Shown here: piece by piece, positions 6,526 through 63,372 of the stretch
Position numbering within the stretch: the stretch's first letter is position 1
Layout: each line of letters begins with the position of its first letter
NCBI GenBank assembly: GCA_028285585.1
Contig: JANQOU010000008.1
Location: 200,760 to 264,759 of the forward strand
Direction: 5' to 3'
Length of the DNA: 64,000 bases
Origin: Acidimicrobiia bacterium
Lineage (GTDB): Bacteria; Actinomycetota; Acidimicrobiia; Spongiisociales; ZC4RG35
Translations under genes and position numbers: made by a program
Notes under the pieces: model-generated
What the model saw: only the letters and a program-made list of their open reading frames with translations
Database searches by the model: none
Told to the model about the DNA's origin: nothing

Positions 6526-8253
6526 TTAGCGGTTTACTTGCAGCCCAGGCGGCTGCGCAACACGAATCATCTCGGAAGCCTCAGTCGTGACTTCTGTGAA
6601 GTTCGACAAGACATCGGAAACGACCCAGGGCCTGGCTTCGTAGACCGTCGTGACGATTGGAAGATCACGATTGATGAGAGCCTCCGCTTCTTTCCAAAGC
6701 CGATCGTACGCGGTCTGATCTGGAGCAGACAGTGCTGCGTCAAGGGCGGTGACATAGCCAGGATTGTCATATCCGGAATGCCGCACGTTTCCTCGAGGAT
6801 CAAGCTGGCTCACGTGGAAAAAGCGGGGATCCTCGAGTTCAGCCCATTGCAGGGCCAGATAGACATCGAAGTCCTCTTCAGCTCGCGTGTTGCGCCATTC
6901 CGTCATGGCTGCCGGCTCCAAGATCTCAATCGAGACCTCGATCCCCAGATTCTCAGACCACATGGCGGCCAATGCCTGTGCGATCAGAGTCTCCCGTGCG
7001 AGCGTCCAAGAGGCGAGCTCCAGAGTCGGGAAGCCCACTCCATCCGCATACCCGGCCTGTGCCAGGAGGTCCTGTGCTGCCTCGACATCGAACTCGGGGA
7101 ACGTGTCGGGATCGTGACTCGACATCTGTGGCGGGCTGAAACTAGTCGCTTGCGCGTAGGCGCCCCGTAGGACGTCATTTGCCAGCGCGTCGAAGTCGAC
7201 GGCCCTCACCAAGGCTTCACGGACGAGGGGATCGTCCGTCGGTGCCGATTGGGTATCGAAGACCATTATCGAACCCCCGGCCAGCGGGATACGCACGACA
7301 TTGTCAGCCATCTCCGCATCGCTCTCCACTCGCTCGAGGTCGGCAGCGGGGATCAACGCAGCGTCAACCTCACCTGCTTCGTAGGGAGTCAGTGCTTCGT
7401 TCCAAGGATCCTGGAATGTCCGATAGATGATCCGGTCGATGTGTCTCGAGTCGGCCCATGGACCCGTGTACTCGGGATTCTTCACGAACTCGATCCGCTG
7501 ATCCCGAACCCACTCATCCAGCTTGTAGGGACCGTTGCCGACAAACGTCTCGGGATCGGTCCACGAGTCCCCATGCTCTTCGATCACGTCCTGGCGGACG
7601 GGGAAGTAGGCGTTCGTGCCGGTGACCCTCAGCCAATACGCTGCTGGCTGCGTGAGCGTCACTTCGAGTGTCAGTTCATCCAAGACTGCTATCCCAACTT
7701 CGGCCGGATCGGTGACCTCACCGTTGAGATACGCCTCAGCGTTGACGATCTCAAAGAAGAGATCGGGGGTGTACCCACCCACACTGGGATCGATCTGACG
7801 AATCCACGCATACCGGAAGTCTTCAGCGGTCAGGGGCTCTCCATCGCTCCACTTGAGACCTTCACGAAGGTGGAACGTATAGACAGTGCCGTCATCAGAA
7901 ACGTCCCATGATTCCGCGGCCAGCGGCTTGATCTCGCCGTCTTTGGCGTAGCTGTCGACCAAAGGCTCGTAAAGATTCTGATACTCCTGGAACCCCGGAC
8001 CGCCAACGGCTGGATCAAGGGAGGCAGGCTCAAAGGCGGGGAGAATCACATAGGTCTCCTCCGAGTCTCCGCCGGACGAATCGCCGCCACCAGAACCTTC
8101 GCCGGTTTCACTTGATGTGGTGCTGGTTTCTCCACCTGATGGTTCATCTGCGGCGCCGGAACAGCCGGCCACCACCACCGCCATGATGAAAAGAGCGACG
8201 AGCAACCTCACTGGTTGCACCAATCGCTCAGAAGAAAGGATTGACATTCTCAT
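6526..8253 (-). CDS. ABC transporter substrate-binding lipoprotein, family 5 (peptide/nickel)
   Basis: Signal peptide with lipobox (…VVVAGCSG), an acidic Gly/Ser linker, and an SBP_bac_5-like body. First gene of the minus-strand operon. Confidence 0.8.
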   Translation of the reverse strand: MRMSILSSERLVQPVRLLVALFIMAVVVAGCSGAADEPSGGETSTTSSETGEGSGGGDSSGGDSEETYVILPAFEPASLDPAVGGPGFQEYQNLYEPLVDSYAKDGEIKPLAAESWDVSDDGTVYTFHLREGLKWSDGEPLTAEDFRYAWIRQIDPSVGGYTPDLFFEIVNAEAYLNGEVTDPAEVGIAVLDELTLEVTLTQPAAYWLRVTGTNAYFPVRQDVIEEHGDSWTDPETFVGNGPYKLDEWVRDQRIEFVKNPEYTGPWADSRHIDRIIYRTFQDPWNEALTPYEAGEVDAALIPAADLERVESDAEMADNVVRIPLAGGSIMVFDTQSAPTDDPLVREALVRAVDFDALANDVLRGAYAQATSFSPPQMSSHDPDTFPEFDVEAAQDLLAQAGYADGVGFPTLELASWTLARETLIAQALAAMWSENLGIEVSIEILEPAAMTEWRNTRAEEDFDVYLALQWAELEDPRFFHVSQLDPRGNVRHSGYDNPGYVTALDAALSAPDQTAYDRLWKEAEALINRDLPIVTTVYEARPWVVSDVLSNFTEVTTEASEMIRVAQPPGLQVNR

Positions 8254-11007: not shown

Positions 11008-12054
11008 CTAGCCCACAGACGGTGTGAGCAGGGAAACCAACATGTAGCCGACAACAGCGAGCGTGAGAGCGGCCGCAGCTCCCGTTGCGAGCGCTCGCCA
11101 CGAGGCCCGGGTCAGTTCCCCTATCACGAGACTCATTCCAACCCCGACTATCGCTACGAGGATGGCTAGATCCGCAAATCCTGTGAGCACGCCCGCGATC
11201 GGCTCTGAAATGACCCCGAAGGTGCGGAGAGCCATCATCCCAAAGAACGCCAGTAGGAAAGTCGGAATGGCGTTCCTGACGCTGGACCGCAGCCCGTCGC
11301 CTCGAGCGTGTTCGCCCCCCACCCGCCAAGCGACCGCGGGTATCACGAGCGCCATAGCGGCGTTCCGAATCAGTTTGACCACTGTTGCGACGTCGCGGGC
11401 CGACTCTGAAAACGCCGTCCCCGCCGCCACCACCTGGCTCGTGTCTTGGATTGCCAGACCGGCCCAGAGCCCGAAAGAGACATCGCCCATGCCCGATAGT
11501 CGACCAATGGGAGGAAGAATCAAGAGACTCACAGTGCCGCAGATCGTGACGGTGCTGACCGCAAGGGCGACATCCGACGAACGGGCCTTGATGACCGGCG
11601 CGGTGGCCATGATCGCCGTGTTGCCACAGATTGCGGAACCTACGCCGATCAAGGCTGCTAGCTGACGCCCACAGGACAAACGCTGGCCGACGATCCATGC
11701 CACTCCGAAGCCCAGTGTGATTGAAGTCGCCACGAGTACTATCGACTCCGATCCGAGTCGGGCGACATCGCCAAGGCTCAGCCGGGCGCCCAACAGCACG
11801 ATTCCGATTCTCAAGACATGACTCGTAAGGATTCGCAGCCCATCGCGCAGGTACCTGTGGGATAGGACATTCCCGACGATGACGCCGAGTATGAGGGCGA
11901 CGGGGATCGGGCTCACCCCGGCGGGCAGGGCTCCAGCGAGCAACGACGCCGACGCCGCCACGGCTGCTCCGGCCATGACTCCCGGGAGGTAGGACAGCAC
12001 CGTCGGGGTATCTGATCGGCTCGGTGTGTGACGAGCGGTCTCGGACTCGCTCAT
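11008..12054 (-). CDS. YeiH/UPF0324-family membrane protein (putative sulfate exporter family)
   Basis: ~10 TM helices with a YeiH-like core (…GVGSAICGNTAIMATAPVI…). Start at MSESE (12054). Confidence 0.7.
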   Translation of the reverse strand: MSESETARHTPSRSDTPTVLSYLPGVMAGAAVAASASLLAGALPAGVSPIPVALILGVIVGNVLSHRYLRDGLRILTSHVLRIGIVLLGARLSLGDVARLGSESIVLVATSITLGFGVAWIVGQRLSCGRQLAALIGVGSAICGNTAIMATAPVIKARSSDVALAVSTVTICGTVSLLILPPIGRLSGMGDVSFGLWAGLAIQDTSQVVAAGTAFSESARDVATVVKLIRNAAMALVIPAVAWRVGGEHARGDGLRSSVRNAIPTFLLAFFGMMALRTFGVISEPIAGVLTGFADLAILVAIVGVGMSLVIGELTRASWRALATGAAAALTLAVVGYMLVSLLTPSVG

Positions 12055-31583: not shown

Positions 31584-31799
31584 CGCCAGCCTTGGAGCCG
31601 CGCCAGCGTCGTGTACATACCGTCGGCGCGAAACAGCTCGTCGTGCGTGCCTCGTTCCACTATTGCACCGTTGTCGAGCACGAGGATCTGGTCAGCCCTT
31701 CGAATGGTTGGGAAACGGTGAGAGAGCACCTCGTAGAAAATGGGGTGCTCAGAAGATGGCGCTCGTGGGTCGTGTGTGGGGTGGCGGACCGTAGCCATC
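31580..31799 (-). pseudogene. 3' remnant of an ABC exporter ATPase gene (last ~50 aa only)
   Basis: The translation ends …[44 protein letters not shown], which is the H-loop-to-C-terminus of MsbA-type ABC ATPases. There is no Walker A, Walker B or transmembrane domain upstream. The annotated ORF would otherwise run through the tRNA. Confidence 0.6.
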
Positions 31800-31853
31800 G
31801 CCGAAATCGGTAAATAGGACGCGCTAAGAAATGGCTCTGACCAGGGCAAACAG

Positions 31854-31927
31854 TGGAGCTGACGGGATTTGAACCCGTGACCCCCTCGTTGCGAACGAGG
31901 TGCTCTGCCAGGCTGAGCTACAGCCCC
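31854..31927 (-). tRNA. tRNA-Ala (anticodon CGC)
   Basis: Folded by hand. Acceptor stem GGGGCTG/CAGCTCC with the G3:U70 Ala identity pair and discriminator A. D-stem GCTC/GAGC. Anticodon stem CCTCG/CGAGG with loop TTCGCAA. T-arm ACGGG-TTCAAAT-CCCGT. No encoded CCA. Confidence 0.9.
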
Positions 31928-31959
31928 TTGCGGGATCGTGGATTCTACTGAGCAACGAA

Positions 31960-32070
31960 CCTGAGGCGATTTGGACCGTATCTGGGCCGGTGCCCTGAAA
32001 GGGCGTGGAGTTTCTGGAAGAAACTCCAACCTGATTTCATCAGGCATTACCTGAGGTTGGTAGAGGGGGG
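31960..32070. repeat. Partial copies of the same repeat family next to tRNA-Ala
   Basis: CCTGAGGCGATTTGGACCGTATCTGGGCCG is the reverse complement of the 62.3-kb unit. ATTACCTGAGGTTGGTAGAGGGGGG is a direct copy of the 62328-62355 arm. It overlaps the translin-gene stop and precedes two small hairpins (CCTGAT…ATCAGG, GGAGTTTC…GAAACTCC). Confidence 0.65.
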
Positions 32071-32673
32071 TTGGCGGAGGTCGGTGCGGAGGCGTTCTTG
32101 GACGATGGTCGCGGTCAGATCCGACCTGGAGCGCTCGACCAGGGAACGCGAGACATCGGTGGTGCGGCGAAGGCCGCTGGTCATCCCGTCTGGGTAGTCG
32201 ACAGTCGCCAGGCTGTCGACGATCTCGTCCATGTGGTCGAGCAGCGCCTCAGCCTCCTCGAGCTTCTCGTCGCGCAGCATGTCGAGCATCCGCCTACGCA
32301 TCTCCCCCACCGCCTCACCGAGCCCGTGCAGGTACGGCACCGGGTCCATGGACAGGTCCTCGAAGCCGGGGATGTCCTTCTCGAGGAACACAGCCTGGGT
32401 GATCCTGGCCTCGGCGTACTCCTTGGCGGCGTCGCTGACGAACCCGGCACCCGCCAGCTCGGGCTGGCCCTCCAAAGCTGCCCTGATATCGGACAACTCC
32501 TGTTCGGCAACGCCGATCAGTCTTTCGGCCTCCTCCCACTCTGAGCGATGCAGCGCCCTGATCGCGTTGGCGGAGGACCGAATCACCTTCCTCGATCCGG
32601 TGATTCCCTTCTCACGCGCGGCGAAGCGAGCGTCGAGGATTGTTCGAATCTCGTCCAGGGAGCCTGGATTCAA
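32047..32673 (-). CDS. Translin-family protein
   Basis: All-helical ~200-aa protein with the …[14 protein letters not shown]… segment resembling the conserved translin Y..G..D..GEL.R region. Confidence 0.5.
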
Positions 32674-44025: not shown

Positions 44026-45165
44026 TCATCCCCGGCCGAGTTGGAAGTACTCGGTGTAGGCAGGCTCCACTGGTCCCGTGTAACGGAGACGATCGAGCGA
44101 GTCAGTGAGATCGGCGCTCGGGTACAAGACTTGATTGGCCACCAGGTCGGGAGAGATCAGGCCCTGAGCGGCGGCGTTCGGGCTGGCATGCCGACCCCAG
44201 TTGGCGAGCTCCGCCGCATTCTCGAGATCGAGAATGAAGTTGATGAACGCATGAGCCGTGCACCGGCTCTCGGCGGCAAGAGGAATCGTCATGCTGTCGA
44301 CCCAGAGAGTCCCGCCCTCGGCCGGGAACACAAACGAGACTGCGCTTCGATCGTCCTCGTCGTCGAGGCCTGCCAGGAAGTCGCCACCTCGAATCTGGGC
44401 CACGGCCAGCTCGCCGCTGATCAGCGACTCCATTTGCCCTTCGTCGCGGAACCTGACAGATCGATCGCGCGAGTCGGCGATGAGATCCGCTGCAGCGGCA
44501 AGCTCGCTCTCATCGGTGGTGTTGACCGAATGCCTGAGGTGGCGAAGCGCCCCTGCCATGGTCTCCCGCGCATTGTCGAGGAGGGCGAGACCTCCGGGCG
44601 ACTCGATCGCCGAGTCGAAGAAGACCGACCAGCTGATCGGCGACTCCTGAGAGACCAGAGCGTTGTTGATCGCCAACCCGGTCGTGCCCCACTGGAAGGC
44701 CGCCGAGTGGGCGCTTCCCGAGTCGAAGACGGGTTCCTCGAACGTCGCACCCAGGTTGGCGAAGTTGGGAAGAAGCCGGCGGTCGAGCCTGCTCAGATAT
44801 CCCTCGTCAACGAGACGCTCGACCACATGATCGGTGGCAATCACCACGTCGTACGAAGCTCCTGACTGAAGCTTCGCGTGCAGCGACTCGTTGGAGTCGT
44901 AGAAGTCCTCGATCACACGCACACCGAGCTCCTCCTCGAACCTGTCGAGGAGAGTCGTGGGCATCCGCGACTCCCGGTGATAGATGTGGAGGTTGCCGTC
45001 GGCTTCCCGCGCCTCGCACTCCAACGGGACCGTGGTGTCCACAGGCAAAGTCGCATCCACAGTGCCCGCGCCGCCGTCGGCCGGAGAACAGGCGGCGATG
45101 ACCAACGCTGCCGAAGCGATCAAGACGGCTCGCGAGAAAGCGATGCGCTTCACCAGATCTTCCAC
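44026..45165 (-). CDS. Spermidine/putrescine-type ABC substrate-binding lipoprotein (PotD/PotF-like), orphan
   Basis: Lipobox …VIAACS… and a PotD-like body. No cognate permease or ATPase is adjacent. Confidence 0.7.
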   Translation of the reverse strand: MEDLVKRIAFSRAVLIASAALVIAACSPADGGAGTVDATLPVDTTVPLECEAREADGNLHIYHRESRMPTTLLDRFEEELGVRVIEDFYDSNESLHAKLQSGASYDVVIATDHVVERLVDEGYLSRLDRRLLPNFANLGATFEEPVFDSGSAHSAAFQWGTTGLAINNALVSQESPISWSVFFDSAIESPGGLALLDNARETMAGALRHLRHSVNTTDESELAAAADLIADSRDRSVRFRDEGQMESLISGELAVAQIRGGDFLAGLDDEDDRSAVSFVFPAEGGTLWVDSMTIPLAAESRCTAHAFINFILDLENAAELANWGRHASPNAAAQGLISPDLVANQVLYPSADLTDSLDRLRYTGPVEPAYTEYFQLGRG

Positions 45166-45198
45166 ACTGCCACCTACGGTTTTCTAGCAGCCGCCCGC

Positions 45199-45270
45199 CG
45201 TTGCTATAGCAAGGCGTCGCGCTGAGCGACACGCGTTGCTATAGCAAGGGGTCGCGTCAGGCGACACGCG
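45199..45270. repeat. Two tandem 35-bp direct repeats, each carrying the palindrome TTGCTATAGCAA and GTCGC-N5-GCGAC
   Basis: Seen directly: CGTTGCTATAGCAAGGCGTCGCGCTGAGCGACACG followed by CGTTGCTATAGCAAGGGGTCGCGTCAGGCGACACG. They lie in the divergent region between the PotD-like gene and the aminotransferase gene. Confidence 0.8.
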
Positions 45271-45309: not shown

Positions 45310-46548
45310 ATGACCTCCTTCTGGCACCCGTTTGCGGAGATGAGCAAGGTGAAGACAGCCCCCTTCATCATCGACCGCGGGGAAGACATCTACGTCTACG
45401 ACGAGCAGGGCAATCGCTATCTCGATGCTGCCGCCTCCCTCTGGTACATGAACATCGGATACGGGCGGGATGAAGTGATCGACGCCATGGACCGTCAGAT
45501 GCGGAAGCTGCCGGCCTTTCACGCCTTCGTCGACTACGGCACCAGGCCGCCGATGGATCTAGCGGCGAAGATCGCTTCGGTGTCCCCGGATCCCGACTCG
45601 AAGGTCTTCTTCGGCTCCGGAGGCTCGGACGCCATCGACACCGCAGCCAAGATGGCGCGTCGCTACTTCAACGCCATCGGCCAGCCCGAGCGCACCATCT
45701 TCATCGCCAGGGAGTGGGCTTACCACGGCATGCACAGCTACGGCACCGCCCTCGGCGGCATGGAGCAGAATCGTCTCGGGTATGGAGGCGACCTCGTCTC
45801 CGACGTCGTGATGGTCCCCTACGACGACGCCGAAGCCGTGGAGAAGGCGATCGATCACGCCGGAGCAGACCGGGTCGCCGGCATCTTCGTGGAAGCCGTC
45901 ATCGGTGCCGGCGGGATCCGGCCGGTCAGCGAGGACTACCTGAGGACGGTGCGCCAATCGATCCGAGACGCCGGAGCTCTCTACATCTCGGACGAGGTGA
46001 TCACCGGCTTCGGCCGTGCCGGCGACTGGTTCGCCGCGGGCAGGTTCGGGCTGGAACCAGATCTGATGACCTTTGCCAAAGGTGTCACCTGCGGATACGC
46101 CCCTCTGGGCGGCGTTGTCGCCGCAAGTCACATCGCGGAGCCCTTCTTCTCCCAACCCGGCCTCATGTTCCGCCATGGCTACACGTACTCGGGCCACTCG
46201 ACGGCCTGTGCGGCCGGCATCGTCGTGATGGACATCATCGAACGAGAGGGACTGCTCGAGCGTGCCCGCCAGCTCGAAGGAGAGATGTACGAGGCGCTCC
46301 TCCCTTTGGAGGCCTTGGATGTCGTCGACCATGTGAGACGCGGAGTGGGTGCTCTCACCGCGGTTCAGTTGGAGGTCGGCGAAGACGAGACATTGCCCGG
46401 CCGAGCCGCGGCTGCTTGCAGGAAGGCCGGCGTCCTCACCCGGGCGATGGGCAACGGTGCCTTGCAAGTCTCCCCTCCCCTGACGATGACTCCTGATCAG
46501 GTCAAGGAGATGGCCGGCCTGTTCGACACGGGTCTCCGCAGCCTGTGA
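45310..46548 (+). CDS. Class-III (omega) aminotransferase, PLP-dependent
   Basis: AT-III motifs …FGSGGSDAIDTA…, …DEVITGFGRAG… and …TFAKGVTCGY… (PLP-Lys). Confidence 0.85.
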   Translation: MTSFWHPFAEMSKVKTAPFIIDRGEDIYVYDEQGNRYLDAAASLWYMNIGYGRDEVIDAMDRQMRKLPAFHAFVDYGTRPPMDLAAKIASVSPDPDSKVFFGSGGSDAIDTAAKMARRYFNAIGQPERTIFIAREWAYHGMHSYGTALGGMEQNRLGYGGDLVSDVVMVPYDDAEAVEKAIDHAGADRVAGIFVEAVIGAGGIRPVSEDYLRTVRQSIRDAGALYISDEVITGFGRAGDWFAAGRFGLEPDLMTFAKGVTCGYAPLGGVVAASHIAEPFFSQPGLMFRHGYTYSGHSTACAAGIVVMDIIEREGLLERARQLEGEMYEALLPLEALDVVDHVRRGVGALTAVQLEVGEDETLPGRAAAACRKAGVLTRAMGNGALQVSPPLTMTPDQVKEMAGLFDTGLRSL

Positions 46549-56812: not shown

Positions 56813-56939
56813 CAACAACCCACCTGTGTGCGCGGAGTTTGCGAAGCAAACTCAAGGCTGCCGAGCCCCCGAGGCAGCCAGGTTCAGCAAATAGGCCCGG
56901 CTAACAACAACCCACGGCTGCCGAACCGGTCGAGACAGG

Positions 56940-60056: not shown

Positions 60057-60683
60057 ATGGCAATGGATGTGGTTGCACTCCAAGAGAAAATCGGCCGTAT
60101 CGACGGGGTCGAAGCAGCCCGTGTGGTGGCCGGGAACGGCCACATCGACGAGATCCATGTGCTGGCCCGCCGGCACAAGGCACCAAAACAGCTGGTCAGG
60201 GACGTGCAGTCACTCGGGGCCGCCCTGTTCGACGTCGACATCGACCGCCGCATCGTCTCGGTGGTCCAACTCGCGGACGCCGACCTCAACGGCGGGATCC
60301 GGCCTGCACTCACCGACGTCTCCGAGAACCTGGAAGGCACCCGTGTCGAAGTGACGGTCACTCTGCGTTGGGAAGACTCGCTTCTGGTCGGAAAGTCGAC
60401 CGGTGCCGCAGCGAACACCATGCGGCCGCGCCAGATCGCAGAAGCAACACTCGAGGCCGTGCGCCAGTCCATCCACCTCGGAGCGGCCGTGGGGATCTCG
60501 TCAATGGACATCGTCACTCTGGGCAGCCGCGAAGTGGCCGTCGCCCAGGTGGTGCTGGTCACCGAGAACTCGGAACGCATGCTGATCGGATCCGCCTACG
60601 TCGAAGATGACAAACAGAGAGCGACCGTGCGCGCCGTGCTCGACGCGCTCAACCGGATCCTCCCCGATCTGAAAGCCCGTTGA
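60057..60683 (+). CDS. Hypothetical protein (208 aa)
   Basis: Protein-like composition and a TTGA overlap with the downstream GGT gene. No motif recognised. Confidence 0.55.
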   Translation: MAMDVVALQEKIGRIDGVEAARVVAGNGHIDEIHVLARRHKAPKQLVRDVQSLGAALFDVDIDRRIVSVVQLADADLNGGIRPALTDVSENLEGTRVEVTVTLRWEDSLLVGKSTGAAANTMRPRQIAEATLEAVRQSIHLGAAVGISSMDIVTLGSREVAVAQVVLVTENSERMLIGSAYVEDDKQRATVRAVLDALNRILPDLKAR

Positions 60684-62227
60684 CCCAAAGGGCCGTAGCC
60701 ACGCCCCATCATCTGTCGGCGGCGGCTGCTCGGCAGATTCTCGATGGTGGCGGGAACGCTGTGGACGCCGCAATCGCCGCGGTCGCTGCCCAGGGAGTCG
60801 TCGCCCCGGAGACATGTGGCGTGGGTGGGGACCTGTTTGCCCTCGTTCACCAACCCGGCTGGGAACGCCCCTTGGCCCTCAACTCCTCAGGTCAGGCCGG
60901 ATCGGATGTCGACGCCGACTCGATCCGGGCGGCAGGCCATACCGAGATACCCCAGGATCACCCGGCGGTGGTCACAGTTCCTGGCTGCGTCGACGGCTTG
61001 GCCGAATTGTCGGCGCGACTCGGCTCGATCGACCTGGCCGAGGCCCTTGGACCGGCGATCGACCTCGCCCGTGAGGGCTTCGCGGCCTCTGACGAGCAGT
61101 CCGGCGCCTTCACCAGACGTGCCGCCGAGTATGCAAGCAATCCAGCAGTGTCCGAGTTCTACCCGGATGGTCAGCCGGTTCAACCGGGGGCATTGGTCCG
61201 GCGCGAACGTCTCGCCCGCACGCTCGAGGTGATCGGCTCAGACGGGAGGTACGGCTTCTACCTCGGCGAGCCGGGACGTGAGATTGTCGAGACCATCGAC
61301 GGGATCCGGCACACCGACCTGGAGCGGAACAACGCCGAGTGGGTCGAGCCGATTGAGGCTTCCGTGGCGGGTTACGAGTGCTGGACCATCCCACCCAACT
61401 CCCAGGGATACCTGACCCCGGCGGCATTGGCGGTGTTCCAGATGCTGGAGCCCCCGGAAGACTCGGAAGACCCACTGTGGTGGCATCTGCTCATCGAGTC
61501 CTACCGGGCCGTGGCGTGGGAACGCGACGACCTCGTCTCCGAGCCAAAGACGGCTCCTTTGCCGGACCGGCTCCTTCTCGATCAGTCTCGCTTGGAGAGA
61601 CTGTCGTCAACCGTCTCCGCCGACCGAACCGGTGTCTGGCCCCGAACCGGAGCACCTTCCGACACTGCCCACCTCTGTGTCGCCGACGAGAACGGATTGG
61701 GCGTATCCATCATCCAGTCGAACTACCGGGGCACCGGGTCACCTTTCGGTGCCGCCAACAGCGGATTCCTGTTCCAGGATCGAGGCGGAGGTTTCAACCT
61801 GATGCCGGGTCATCCCAATGAGCTCCGGCCCGGGAAGCGGCCGCTGCACACTCTTTCGCCAACCCTGTGGACCGACGGAGACCAGCCGCGGTGGCTCTTG
61901 GGAACACGCGGTGGTGCCATTCAGCCTCAGCTTCTTGCTCAGGTGGCCGCCAGGGGGATCGTGAGCAGCTCAGGGTTGGATGAGGCTCAGCAGGCACCAC
62001 GCTGGTCCATCGCCGACTTCGGGCCGCAGACCCAGAGTGTGGTCAGACTGGAACCGGGAGTGCCCGCAGAGGTGACGGATGGGCTGGCCCGCCGCGGCCA
62101 CCAGCTGGAGCAAATGGACGAGCCTCAGTCGGGTTGGGGACCTGTCTCCGTCATTGAGTTGGACGGCGATTCGCGACAAGCCGCCGCCGACCCCCGCGTC
62201 ACCACCACCACAACCCACCTCTGGTAG
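60680..62227 (+). CDS. Gamma-glutamyltransferase-family protein
   Basis: GGT-family N terminus (…AVATPHHLSAAAARQILDGGGNAVDAAIA…) and a C-terminal small-subunit region with a T-nucleophile context. Confidence 0.8.
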   Translation: MTQRAVATPHHLSAAAARQILDGGGNAVDAAIAAVAAQGVVAPETCGVGGDLFALVHQPGWERPLALNSSGQAGSDVDADSIRAAGHTEIPQDHPAVVTVPGCVDGLAELSARLGSIDLAEALGPAIDLAREGFAASDEQSGAFTRRAAEYASNPAVSEFYPDGQPVQPGALVRRERLARTLEVIGSDGRYGFYLGEPGREIVETIDGIRHTDLERNNAEWVEPIEASVAGYECWTIPPNSQGYLTPAALAVFQMLEPPEDSEDPLWWHLLIESYRAVAWERDDLVSEPKTAPLPDRLLLDQSRLERLSSTVSADRTGVWPRTGAPSDTAHLCVADENGLGVSIIQSNYRGTGSPFGAANSGFLFQDRGGGFNLMPGHPNELRPGKRPLHTLSPTLWTDGDQPRWLLGTRGGAIQPQLLAQVAARGIVSSSGLDEAQQAPRWSIADFGPQTQSVVRLEPGVPAEVTDGLARRGHQLEQMDEPQSGWGPVSVIELDGDSRQAAADPRVTTTTTHLW

Positions 62228-62355
62228 CAACCCCCTCACCCGCAACCTCAGGTAATAACGCCCAAATACGGTCCAAATCACCTCACGTTCAGCCCCAACT
62301 TGAGGCCATAGCGCCCAGATACGGTCGGTATTACCTGAGGTTCGCGGTAGGGGGG
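62228..62355. repeat. 128-bp convergent intergenic region forming a long imperfect hairpin built from a repeat-element family
   Basis: Seen directly: CAACCCCCTCACCCGCAACCTCAGGTAATA…TATTACCTGAGGTTCGCGGTAGGGGGGT as outer arms. Internal direct repeats are ACGCCCAAATACGGTCC and GCGCCCAGATACGGTCGG. Confidence 0.7.
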
Positions 62356-63372
62356 TCAGGGTTTGAGGTCGGTGATGACCTGGCGGGCTGCATCCGGGTC
62401 CGACTCGAGTATCGAGCCGAAGGTGTAGAAGCCGATCCTCTGCACGCGATCGCCGTAACGATCGAGGATCGCCTGGCCCAGCTTGTCGACCGGGGCCGCG
62501 ATGCCGATCTCGAACAACGCCTCATCAGGGATGACGTCGGCCATCTCTGCCCACTGCCCACGCTTCGACATGGCGTGGACCTCGTCTCCGAACTCCCAGC
62601 CGCTGGCCTCCAACACCGGCCGGTACGAAGGCGTCGACGCATAGAACGAGATCTGCTGCCGGATCGGGCCCATGGCCTGCTCGACCTCCGAGTCGTCCCG
62701 GCCGGTCATGATGAAGACCGGGCTGACCAGCTCCACATCGTCGAGCGACCGTCCCGCACTCTCTGCTCCACTGGTGATGTTGGGCAGGACGACCTGGTCG
62801 AGATAGTCCACGGTGTGGAACGGGTGGACATGAAACCCGTCGCACACCTCACCTGCCATGCGGCTCAGATGCGGACCCACCCCCGCGATGTACACGGGGA
62901 TGTCCGGATGAGTAATCGGCCCCGGATCGAAGAACGGGGTCATCAGCGAGAAGTTGTAGAACTCGCCCTCGTACCGGAGCCGGGACGAGTCCTGCCAGGC
63001 CTCCCAAATCGCCCGCATCGACAGGATGTAATCCTTCAGCCGGGCGGTTGGCTGCCCCCACTCCGTGCTGAACCGACGAGTTATGTGCGGCTTGATCTGA
63101 GTTCCCAGCCCAAGGAGAAAGCGGCCTTTGGACATGCGCGCCAGGTCCCAACTCACCATTGCGGTGACCATCGGTGAGCGCGGGAAAGCAACTGCGATCG
63201 CGGTCCCCAAGTCGATGTCGAGCCCCTCGGCTCCGGCAAGCGCCAGCGGCAGGAACGGGTCGTACTTCGTCTCCGTGGAGAAGAACCCCTCGTATCCGAG
63301 ATCGGCCGCCTGGCGAACGGCACTCGAAGCAGCCTCCGGCGAGGTCATCGGGTAGTAGAAGTCGGCCTTCAT
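62356..63372 (-). CDS. LLM-class flavin/F420-dependent oxidoreductase (luciferase-like monooxygenase family)
   Basis: Luciferase-like TIM-barrel family length and motifs (…GFFSTETKYDPFLPLA…, …RIGFYTFGSI…). Confidence 0.75.
   Translation of the reverse strand: MKADFYYPMTSPEAASSAVRQAADLGYEGFFSTETKYDPFLPLALAGAEGLDIDLGTAIAVAFPRSPMVTAMVSWDLARMSKGRFLLGLGTQIKPHITRRFSTEWGQPTARLKDYILSMRAIWEAWQDSSRLRYEGEFYNFSLMTPFFDPGPITHPDIPVYIAGVGPHLSRMAGEVCDGFHVHPFHTVDYLDQVVLPNITSGAESAGRSLDDVELVSPVFIMTGRDDSEVEQAMGPIRQQISFYASTPSYRPVLEASGWEFGDEVHAMSKRGQWAEMADVIPDEALFEIGIAAPVDKLGQAILDRYGDRVQRIGFYTFGSILESDPDAARQVITDLKP

Follow-up and report, generated by a model that had tools for sequence, protein, structure and literature searches.

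The 64,000 nucleotides analysed here (the window) are a stretch of contig JANQOU010000008.1 (assembly GCA_028285585.1, positions 200,760 to 264,759) from an uncultured Acidimicrobiia bacterium. Near the right end of the window, a gene for a gamma-glutamyltranspeptidase (GGT) and a gene for a luciferase-like, F420-dependent oxidoreductase (LLM) converge on a spacer of 128 nt, counted from stop codon to stop codon, which consists almost entirely of a single imperfect palindrome, here called element A. Convergent genes in this genome are otherwise 0–22 nt apart, and element A is by a wide margin the longest inverted repeat of the window. A comparison with related loci shows that it belongs to a modular palindromic repeat family, with homologous copies at unrelated sites and with orthologous sites that are filled in some relatives and empty in others.

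The inverted arms of element A as delimited by a repeat finder (62230–62289 and 62297–62356) have 60 nt each and are 70% complementary, with a perfect core of 14 bp, and the element matches the family profile with an nhmmer E-value of 5e-42. The minimum free energy of the predicted RNA fold is -55.7 kcal/mol for the plus strand (z = -5.6) and -66.3 kcal/mol for the minus strand (z = -4.9), and on neither strand did any of 200 dinucleotide-preserving shuffles fold as well. The initial annotation of this DNA had described a long imperfect hairpin that fills the spacer, bracketed by runs of five C and six G. This description is confirmed, as are the two direct repeats of about 17 bp noted within the hairpin (62258–62274 and 62311–62328), which turn out to be parts of a longer direct repeat of 53 nt with 74% identity. 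The tract that follows the run of six G reads TCAGGGTTTGAGG; there is no run of T.

The family is built from an asymmetric unit of 47 nt, GAAC-CTNAGG-N6-GACCGTATYTGGGC-N7-CCTNAGGTT, in which inverted ends of 9 bp (AACCTNAGG and CCTNAGGTT) enclose a box of 14 nt (GACCGTATYTGGGC). Six instances from four loci align without gaps: two from element A (on the minus strand), two from a second full copy in a related metagenome-assembled genome (MAG; locus L008), one from a further copy in the window (copy B) and one from the relative L050. On one strand, the profile E-values of all six lie between 1e-10 and 5e-13, and the asymmetry is evident from the scores of the unit profile, which are 39–47 bits on one strand and 10–25 bits on the other. 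Weaker matches occur at 7241–7284 in L052, L053 and L054 (E = 2.5e-5) and at 11046–11089 in L055 (E = 0.01). A full element consists of unit 1 (u1), a loop of 6–21 nt and unit 2 (u2), arranged head to tail, i.e. as direct repeats, as both units of element A score on the minus strand (44 bits) and both units of the L008 copy on the plus strand (43–47 bits). The strand assigned to u1 is that of its box GACCGTATCTGGGC.

Unit 1 has end sites of the CCTCAGG type and unit 2 has end sites of the CCTGAGG type, so that one unit pairs with the other over the whole length. Pairing is perfect between the left end of unit 1 and the right end of unit 2; the two inner ends also form pairs, and the boxes pair in part via G-U on the strand reading CCGTATYTGG. 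Capped by the extensions AACCCCCC...GGGGGGTT, the pair of units forms a hairpin of about 125–140 nt. The outer termini, (Y)AACCCCC(C)-TC-N4-6 or its complement, are found at all five intact ends (both ends of element A, both ends of the L008 copy and the right end of copy B). Stems and box are conserved among the copies, while linkers and loop are variable, and the distance between the boxes is 53 nt in element A and 61–62 nt in L008; copy B has a single box.

The second full copy (L008:673–813) comes from the MAG "Acidimicrobiia bacterium IP29b_bin.45" and shares 80% identity with element A (105/131). It has fold z-scores of -8.3 and -7.4, and also fills a convergent spacer from stop to stop, with TAA/TTA stop codons that extend the inverted repeat. 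Its flanking genes, a Zincin_2-like gene and a gene for a 310-aa protein upstream of an anti-sigma/sigma pair, differ from those at element A (GGT and LLM).

At the GGT/LLM site itself, the relatives differ from one another (the identities given are amino-acid identities to the window LLM protein, taken from the alignment). The site is empty in L049, the sister of the window in the LLM tree (LLM 83%, spacer 15 nt), in L042 (80%, 7 nt) and in L043 (78%, 22 nt). One u2-type unit in opposite orientation occupies the 79-nt spacer of L050/L051 (80%), and one decayed unit, also in opposite orientation, the spacer of about 65 nt in L055 (74%), where the fold is no better than that of shuffles (z about 0). 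The 73-nt spacer of L052–54 (76%) is filled with unrelated sequence. A similar pattern is seen at the convergent spacer between a Flavin_Reduct gene and a LysM-M23 peptidase gene, which contains the unit at 7241–7284 in L052–54 but is empty, at 0–14 nt, in L001 (from the lineage of the window), L042, L043 and L055. The palindromic family of REP (repetitive extragenic palindromic) or MITE (miniature transposable element with inverted repeats) character that had been suspected from element A is thus supported by copies at non-orthologous sites in at least four lineages. Convergent spacers account for 4 of the 5 independent sites, compared with 8 of the 53 gene junctions in the window (binomial P = 0.002). 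All homologues with source names are from Acidimicrobiia or Actinomycetota MAGs. Three independent short-read contigs (Logan, MEGAHIT) end inside a copy (L001:7200–7220, L044:707–723 and L051:1437–1463), as is expected for a repeated or polymorphic sequence, and this suggests that the repeat, or its variation, breaks assemblies of this clade.

Three spacers in relatives were noted in addition. The short spacer of L049 (1054–1068), CACCAACCTGACGGG, can be aligned as a subsequence of the fused ends of the element (CACC..AACCTGA..CGGG) and may be the footprint of a deletion or excision (a solo AACCTGA), but is too short to judge. The spacer of L052 (10952–11024) has a hairpin of its own (GCGTGTG...CACACGC), the fold of which is not significant, and ends in GGGGTTA like a terminus of the element. 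At L012 (2256–2345), from an Actinomycetota MAG, a convergent spacer has CCCCCGTTTGTAACCTCAGGTAATA after a gene end, with an interior that does not match the unit (nhmmer E ~0.01–0.04); the similarity may be due to chance or indicate a distant or degenerate family member.

Copy B lies some 30 kb from element A, between a tRNA-Ala(cgc) gene (31853–31927) and the open reading frame (ORF) of a translin-like protein (32047–32673), the stop codon of which it overlaps. Pieces of the same family had been reported there by the initial annotation, one inverted and one direct, and both were recovered: 31957–31989 matches element A in inverted orientation (90% over 31 nt), and ATTACCTGAGGTT recurs exactly at 32046–32058, followed by six G. 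Copy B is rearranged, lies between co-directional genes, and has a third small hairpin, GCCC/GGGC, at the right end of its unit (~31991–32005), in addition to those listed in the Table.

The insertion of copy B has changed a protein. Nearly all of the best 120 translin-like homologues align across only ~96% of the query, and 9 of the 12 more distant homologues that were read have 201–203 aa and end with ...ERLRxDLRxx*. The window protein has 208 aa, its extra eight codons and TAA stop being provided by the element terminus CAACCCCCCTCTACCAACCTCAGGTAA. In a relative with 95% identity (P0122 / L044), both the tail and the first 45 nt of the element are as in the window, after which the contig ends. 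In the sister lineage L056 (81% identity), the translin-like gene ends with ...DLRP*, the element is absent, and an unrelated spacer of 158 nt precedes tRNA-Ala; all that L056 and the window share there is GTAGAATCC, just upstream of the tRNA gene and probably its -10 region. The QPPSTNLR* tail is thus missing from nearly all of these homologues and from L056, which is devoid of the element, and is shared with the 95% relative; the insertion of copy B is therefore recent and has recoded the gene end.

Features of element A and copy B in the window, with their flanking genes
Feature	Position	Strand	Basis or remark
GGT ORF, gamma-glutamyltranspeptidase (PF01019)	60680–62227	+	TAG stop at 62225–62227
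LLM ORF, luciferase-like / F420-dependent oxidoreductase (PF00296)	62356–63372	-	stop is TCA at 62356–62358
Element A, full-length, 127-nt imperfect palindrome in the GGT/LLM spacer	62230–62356		arms, fold z-scores, nhmmer
Outer C-run (C5), left terminus of A	62231–62235	+	pairs with G-run 62350–62355
Left terminal inverted-repeat core AACCTCAGGTAATA	62244–62257	+	exact reverse complement of 62329–62342
47-nt unit u2, G-type CGTGAGG / CCTGAGG sites, direct relative to u1	62244–62290	-	profile E = 5e-12 on minus strand
Box copy in u2 (+ strand GCCCAAATACGGTC, - strand GACCGTATTTGGGC)	62260–62273	-	sequence, unit profile
47-nt unit u1, C-type CCTCAGG / CCTCAAG sites	62297–62343	-	profile E = 3e-12 on minus strand, 2e-3 on plus strand
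Box copy in u1 (+ strand GCCCAGATACGGTC, - strand GACCGTATCTGGGC)	62313–62326	-	sequence, unit profile
Right terminal inverted-repeat core TATTACCTGAGGTT	62329–62342	+	13-mer also in B and at both L008 ends
Outer G-run (G6), right terminus of A	62350–62355	+	immediately precedes LLM stop TCA 62356–62358
Copy B, single u2-type unit	31957–32001	+	unit profile E = 1.6e-10; blastn 90% over 31 nt to A
Copy B interior, small perfect hairpins GGAGTTTCT/AGAAACTCC and CCTGAT/ATCAGG, no family match	32002–32043		sequence reading
Copy B right terminus GCATTACCTGAGGTT-GGTAGA-GGGGGG-TTGG	32044–32074	+	sequence, profile
Last eight codons and TAA stop of translin-like gene (QPPSTNLR*), from element terminus	32047–32073	-	homologue comparison

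Two further observations concern the surroundings of this tRNA gene. In a 75% relative (L045, 10610–12358), 1.75 kb with four genes, coding for a 139-aa protein, an HTH_3 regulator and two PPK2 fragments, lie between the translin-like gene and tRNA-Ala(cgc); these genes are absent from the window and from L056, so that a small variable segment is present at the tRNA. About 100 nt past the 3' end of tRNA-Ala in the window, a stretch of 29 nt (31723–31751) is 72% complementary to a part of the tRNA gene (31878–31906), which could be due to chance or be the relic of a tRNA fragment.

Homology at non-orthologous sites, combined with presence or absence at orthologous ones, is what characterises a repeat that is dispersed and is, or at least was, mobile. 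The interpretation that we favour, with a probability of roughly three in four, is that element A represents a complete copy from a family of small, dispersed, non-coding palindromic repeats which spreads non-autonomously, survives at safe sites and affects the 3' ends of transcripts as a by-product. On present data, its occurrence is limited to a single uncultured clade of Acidimicrobiia. According to this interpretation, the element would spread, or would once have spread, as a non-autonomous mobile element with an enzyme supplied in trans, for which the candidates are a transposase specific for the inverted ends, or a single-strand transposase resembling the RAYTs (REP-associated tyrosine transposases) and specific for the hairpin. 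Paired units would represent the active, conserved form, and single units decaying remnants. Copies may persist mainly in convergent spacers because these would be the only sites in a compact genome that can take ~130 nt without damage to a promoter. That the window and L050 carry oppositely oriented units at the GGT/LLM site may be due to two insertions or to an inversion between CCTNAGG sites.

As the element starts 0–3 nt from both stop codons, transcription would make it the 3' end of each of the two convergent mRNAs. Its long G+C-rich hairpin would then most likely be a barrier to 3'-exonucleases and/or a U-tract-less structure for pausing or termination, and this effect on RNA would be a by-product and not the reason for the existence of the element. 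In addition, an insertion may recode a gene end, as in copy B.

Several points weigh against this interpretation. One is the small number of copies. Only two (A and B) are present in the window, no further window copies being detected when the window and 55 loci were searched by nhmmer with full-element and unit profiles, and few were added by a profile search of ~360 kb of related loci. A scan of 185,579 GTDB species representatives for the exact pattern ATTACCTGAGGTTN{5,9}GGGGG, which is too strict for diverged units such as that of L050, gave one clear family locus (L008) and one doubtful one (L012), and the scan of JGI metagenomes gave no family locus; the other hits were chance or coding matches, several of them representing a conserved Tabrizicola gene end. 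A second point is the mobilising enzyme, as none is known for the family and none is encoded in the window, where no Pfam family of transposases, integrases or Y1-transposases was detected among the ~55 ORFs (by Pfam, transporters and metabolic or housekeeping genes). A matching insertion sequence would carry the ends AACCCCCCTC...AACCTCAGGTAAT. Protein database searches with the translated element, using the frames open through element A and the L008 copy, did not yield a candidate. Further, a target-site duplication cannot be demonstrated from two copies with boundaries set post hoc: the flanks are CA/CA (A) and TA/TA (L008), but only if the ends are placed post hoc at A-C5...G6-T, with n = 2 and with stop codons constraining the bases. 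The conservation of the stems appears strong, as element A and the L008 copy differ in 4 of 76 paired but in 22 of 55 unpaired columns (Fisher P = 1e-6), yet the test is biased, since the two sequences under comparison had also served to predict the structure. The pattern of filled and empty sites is explained equally well by an ancestral element and repeated deletions as by repeated insertion. Finally, the hairpin has no U-tract, so that a role as terminator or stabiliser is purely inferred.

This last point also bears on the possibility that the element is mainly a selected cis-acting module, i.e. a bidirectional terminator or a stabiliser of mRNA 3' ends that is copied by recombination and prevents transcriptional collision or read-through. 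We consider this unlikely. In its favour, both full copies are located 0–3 nt from both stop codons, four of the five sites are convergent spacers, the conserved part of the element is its stems, and the TAA/TTA stop codons in L008 prolong the inverted repeat. However, the same site is free of the element in three relatives (spacers of 7–22 nt), single units, such as that of L055, decay to the point of losing their structure, and copy B is rearranged and lies between co-directional genes. A scan of 61500–63000 on both strands found neither a sigma-70-like promoter nor a terminator-like hairpin with a T-run. A preference for convergent gene ends is also ambiguous, because purifying selection alone would leave a selfish insert at such positions. 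The bidirectional terminator suggested by the initial annotation is therefore possible only as a side effect.

A further-reaching proposal, which we regard as a long shot, is that the 47-nt unit is the recognition module of an undescribed single-strand or hairpin DNA mobility system in Actinomycetota, and the full element a portable bidirectional gene-end cassette with an invertible box. Such a system would target a few bases at or near the stop codons of converging genes, and the full element would bring its own stops, namely TAA/TTA in L008 and the TAA within CAGGTAAT that is used by the translin-like gene. Inversion of the box between CCTNAGG sites would explain why the boxes of the window and of L050 are oppositely oriented despite a similar outer extension.

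There is also a slim chance that the element is an array of protein-binding sites on double-stranded DNA, e.g. for a nucleoid-associated protein, a regulator or a site-specific recombinase, and that its potential to form a hairpin is incidental. The four CCTNAGG half-palindromes and the two 14-nt boxes, which are 53 nt or about five helical turns apart, would fit such an array, as would the direct, not inverted, arrangement of the boxes, their rank as the best-conserved part of the interior, and the clear strand asymmetry of the unit. Against it stands the central base of CCTNAGG, which differs systematically between the units (C in unit 1, G in unit 2) so that they pair, a property that matters only for a hairpin or cruciform. 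Moreover, the spacing of the boxes is not the same in element A and L008, copy B has only one of them, and none of the copies is linked to a candidate for the bound protein.

It is very improbable that the element is a stand-alone gene for a structured small RNA, either 6S-like, as its shape had suggested at first sight, or of a new type. In favour of this is the long closed stem with internal loops, which folds better than shuffles on both strands, but no Rfam family matches the element, either at gathering thresholds or at E <= 10. At the gathering level, tRNA-Ala is the only match in the window, and at E <= 10 the region 62100–62500 has only a weak match to a snoRNA model, at 62368–62407, which is outside the element and far below the gathering score. 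In addition, there is no promoter-like site in or beside the element, both strands are palindromic, close relatives are without it at the GGT/LLM site, and it varies by insertion, occurs in multiple copies and is rearranged in copy B. We dismiss with near certainty the suggestion that the ATTACCTGAGGTT-N6-7-GGGGGG motifs, present as two direct copies at a distance of 30.3 kb, are recombination relics (attL/attR) flanking an island linked to tRNA-Ala: although they are direct repeats and one of them adjoins the tRNA gene, GGT (inside) and LLM (outside) are adjacent and convergent in all five relatives that show both genes, with or without the element (as read from gene tables in some relatives and from the conserved GGT C-terminal coding sequence in others), the window is collinear with L045 at 32–40 kb and with L052 at 50–64 kb, an integrase is not among the window ORFs, and the motif is also found inverted inside element A and in the unrelated context of L008.

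Some other types of structured element were tried and rejected. The motifs CGCGAAC / GTTCGCG, GTTGCAA and GTTGGTA do not fit the RYYYAAC / GTTRRRY consensus of integron attC sites, and the flanking genes are syntenic core genes and not a cassette array. No reverse transcriptase is present, as would be needed for a retron (msr/msd). The ends of Tn3-family elements start with 5'-GGGG, and those of the element start with 5'-CCCCC. A scan of viral contigs with a two-ended pattern gave 0 hits.

With respect to known systems, the dispersed palindromic repeat that we favour is closest to REPINs and to bacterial MITEs. As a new family of a well-known kind, it would not surprise specialists. REPINs, described in Pseudomonas and Enterobacteria, are doublets of REPs that form hairpins and owe their mobility to RAYT transposases (PMC3116915, PMC3337134). 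Like the element described here, they are non-coding and extragenic, have ~90–140 nt, combine two short units into one long hairpin, are enriched at gene ends and show no obvious target-site duplication. Doublets are well conserved and single copies look like decaying remnants, and the lost fold of the L055 unit fits this pattern (PMC3337134). However, the family does not consist of REPINs in the strict sense, because of the orientation of its units: REPs are inverted, whereas the 47-nt units are direct as judged by the box and form a hairpin via their near-palindromic CCTNAGG ends. In addition, the RAYT is known for REPINs but not for this family, the 5' GTAG that classical REPs have in common is not conserved here, and REPINs number hundreds per genome, whereas the copy number of this family appears low in the available data. 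In the literature, we found no REPINs described for the actinobacterial class of the host, and no paper on such palindromic repeats in Acidimicrobiia.

A close kind is also represented by bacterial MITEs, such as Correia/CREE in Neisseria, ERIC/IRU in enterobacteria, RUP and SPRITE in pneumococcus and the RPEs of Rickettsia (PMC10969869). Like the present family, these have 100–150 nt, terminal inverted repeats, no coding capacity, and orthologous sites that are filled or empty, and a whole copy folds as a stable RNA hairpin when co-transcribed; RPEs and other MITEs can alter the C-terminus of an adjacent gene, as copy B does. The family described here has terminal inverted repeats with a 14-bp core (AACCTCAGGTAATA/TATTACCTGAGGTT) and a mismatched extension to C5-6/G6, the same ends being found in L008, and at 125–140 nt without a transposase gene it is within the size range of MITEs (<~500 bp). 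It differs from them in that neither a parent insertion sequence nor a convincing target-site duplication is known, that a direct dimer of an asymmetric unit is unusual, and that its termini are G/C homopolymer runs.

U-tract-less ("I-shaped") hairpin terminators have been proposed for Actinobacteria, but their efficacy is disputed. The element resembles them as a G+C-rich hairpin right after a stop codon without a T-run. It differs in having a stem several times longer, and in being a dispersed homologous repeat, absent from the same site in relatives, and not a structure that evolved locally.

Proteobacteria and Firmicutes commonly carry small palindromic repeats, and the general picture is unchanged by this family. 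Its profile can be used for strain typing and for spotting MAG assembly breaks in the clade. It also calls for caution in annotation, as the element makes spurious C-terminal tails and open frames, two reading frames staying open across element A. Finally, it is suited for testing whether, in compact genomes of actinobacteria, long hairpins devoid of a U-tract bring about the termination or the stabilisation of transcripts where two genes converge.

Two other spacers of the window contain repeats. At 45198–45268, between divergent genes for a solute-binding protein (44026–45165, minus strand) and a class-III aminotransferase (45310–46548, plus strand), there are two tandem repeats of 35 nt that are 86% identical and have internal palindromes (CGTTGCTATAGCAAGG; GTCGCG...CGCGAC); from their sequence, they look like paired operator sites. 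The second is a convergent spacer of 127 nt (56813–56939) between a DUF5317 gene (plus strand) and an HD-domain gene (minus strand), with a direct repeat CAACAACCCAC at 56814–24 and 56905–15 and with small perfect hairpins, the fold being not significant (z = -1.1 to -1.8). It may be a small insertion of a different family; in L052, the DUF5317 and HD-domain genes overlap and have no spacer.

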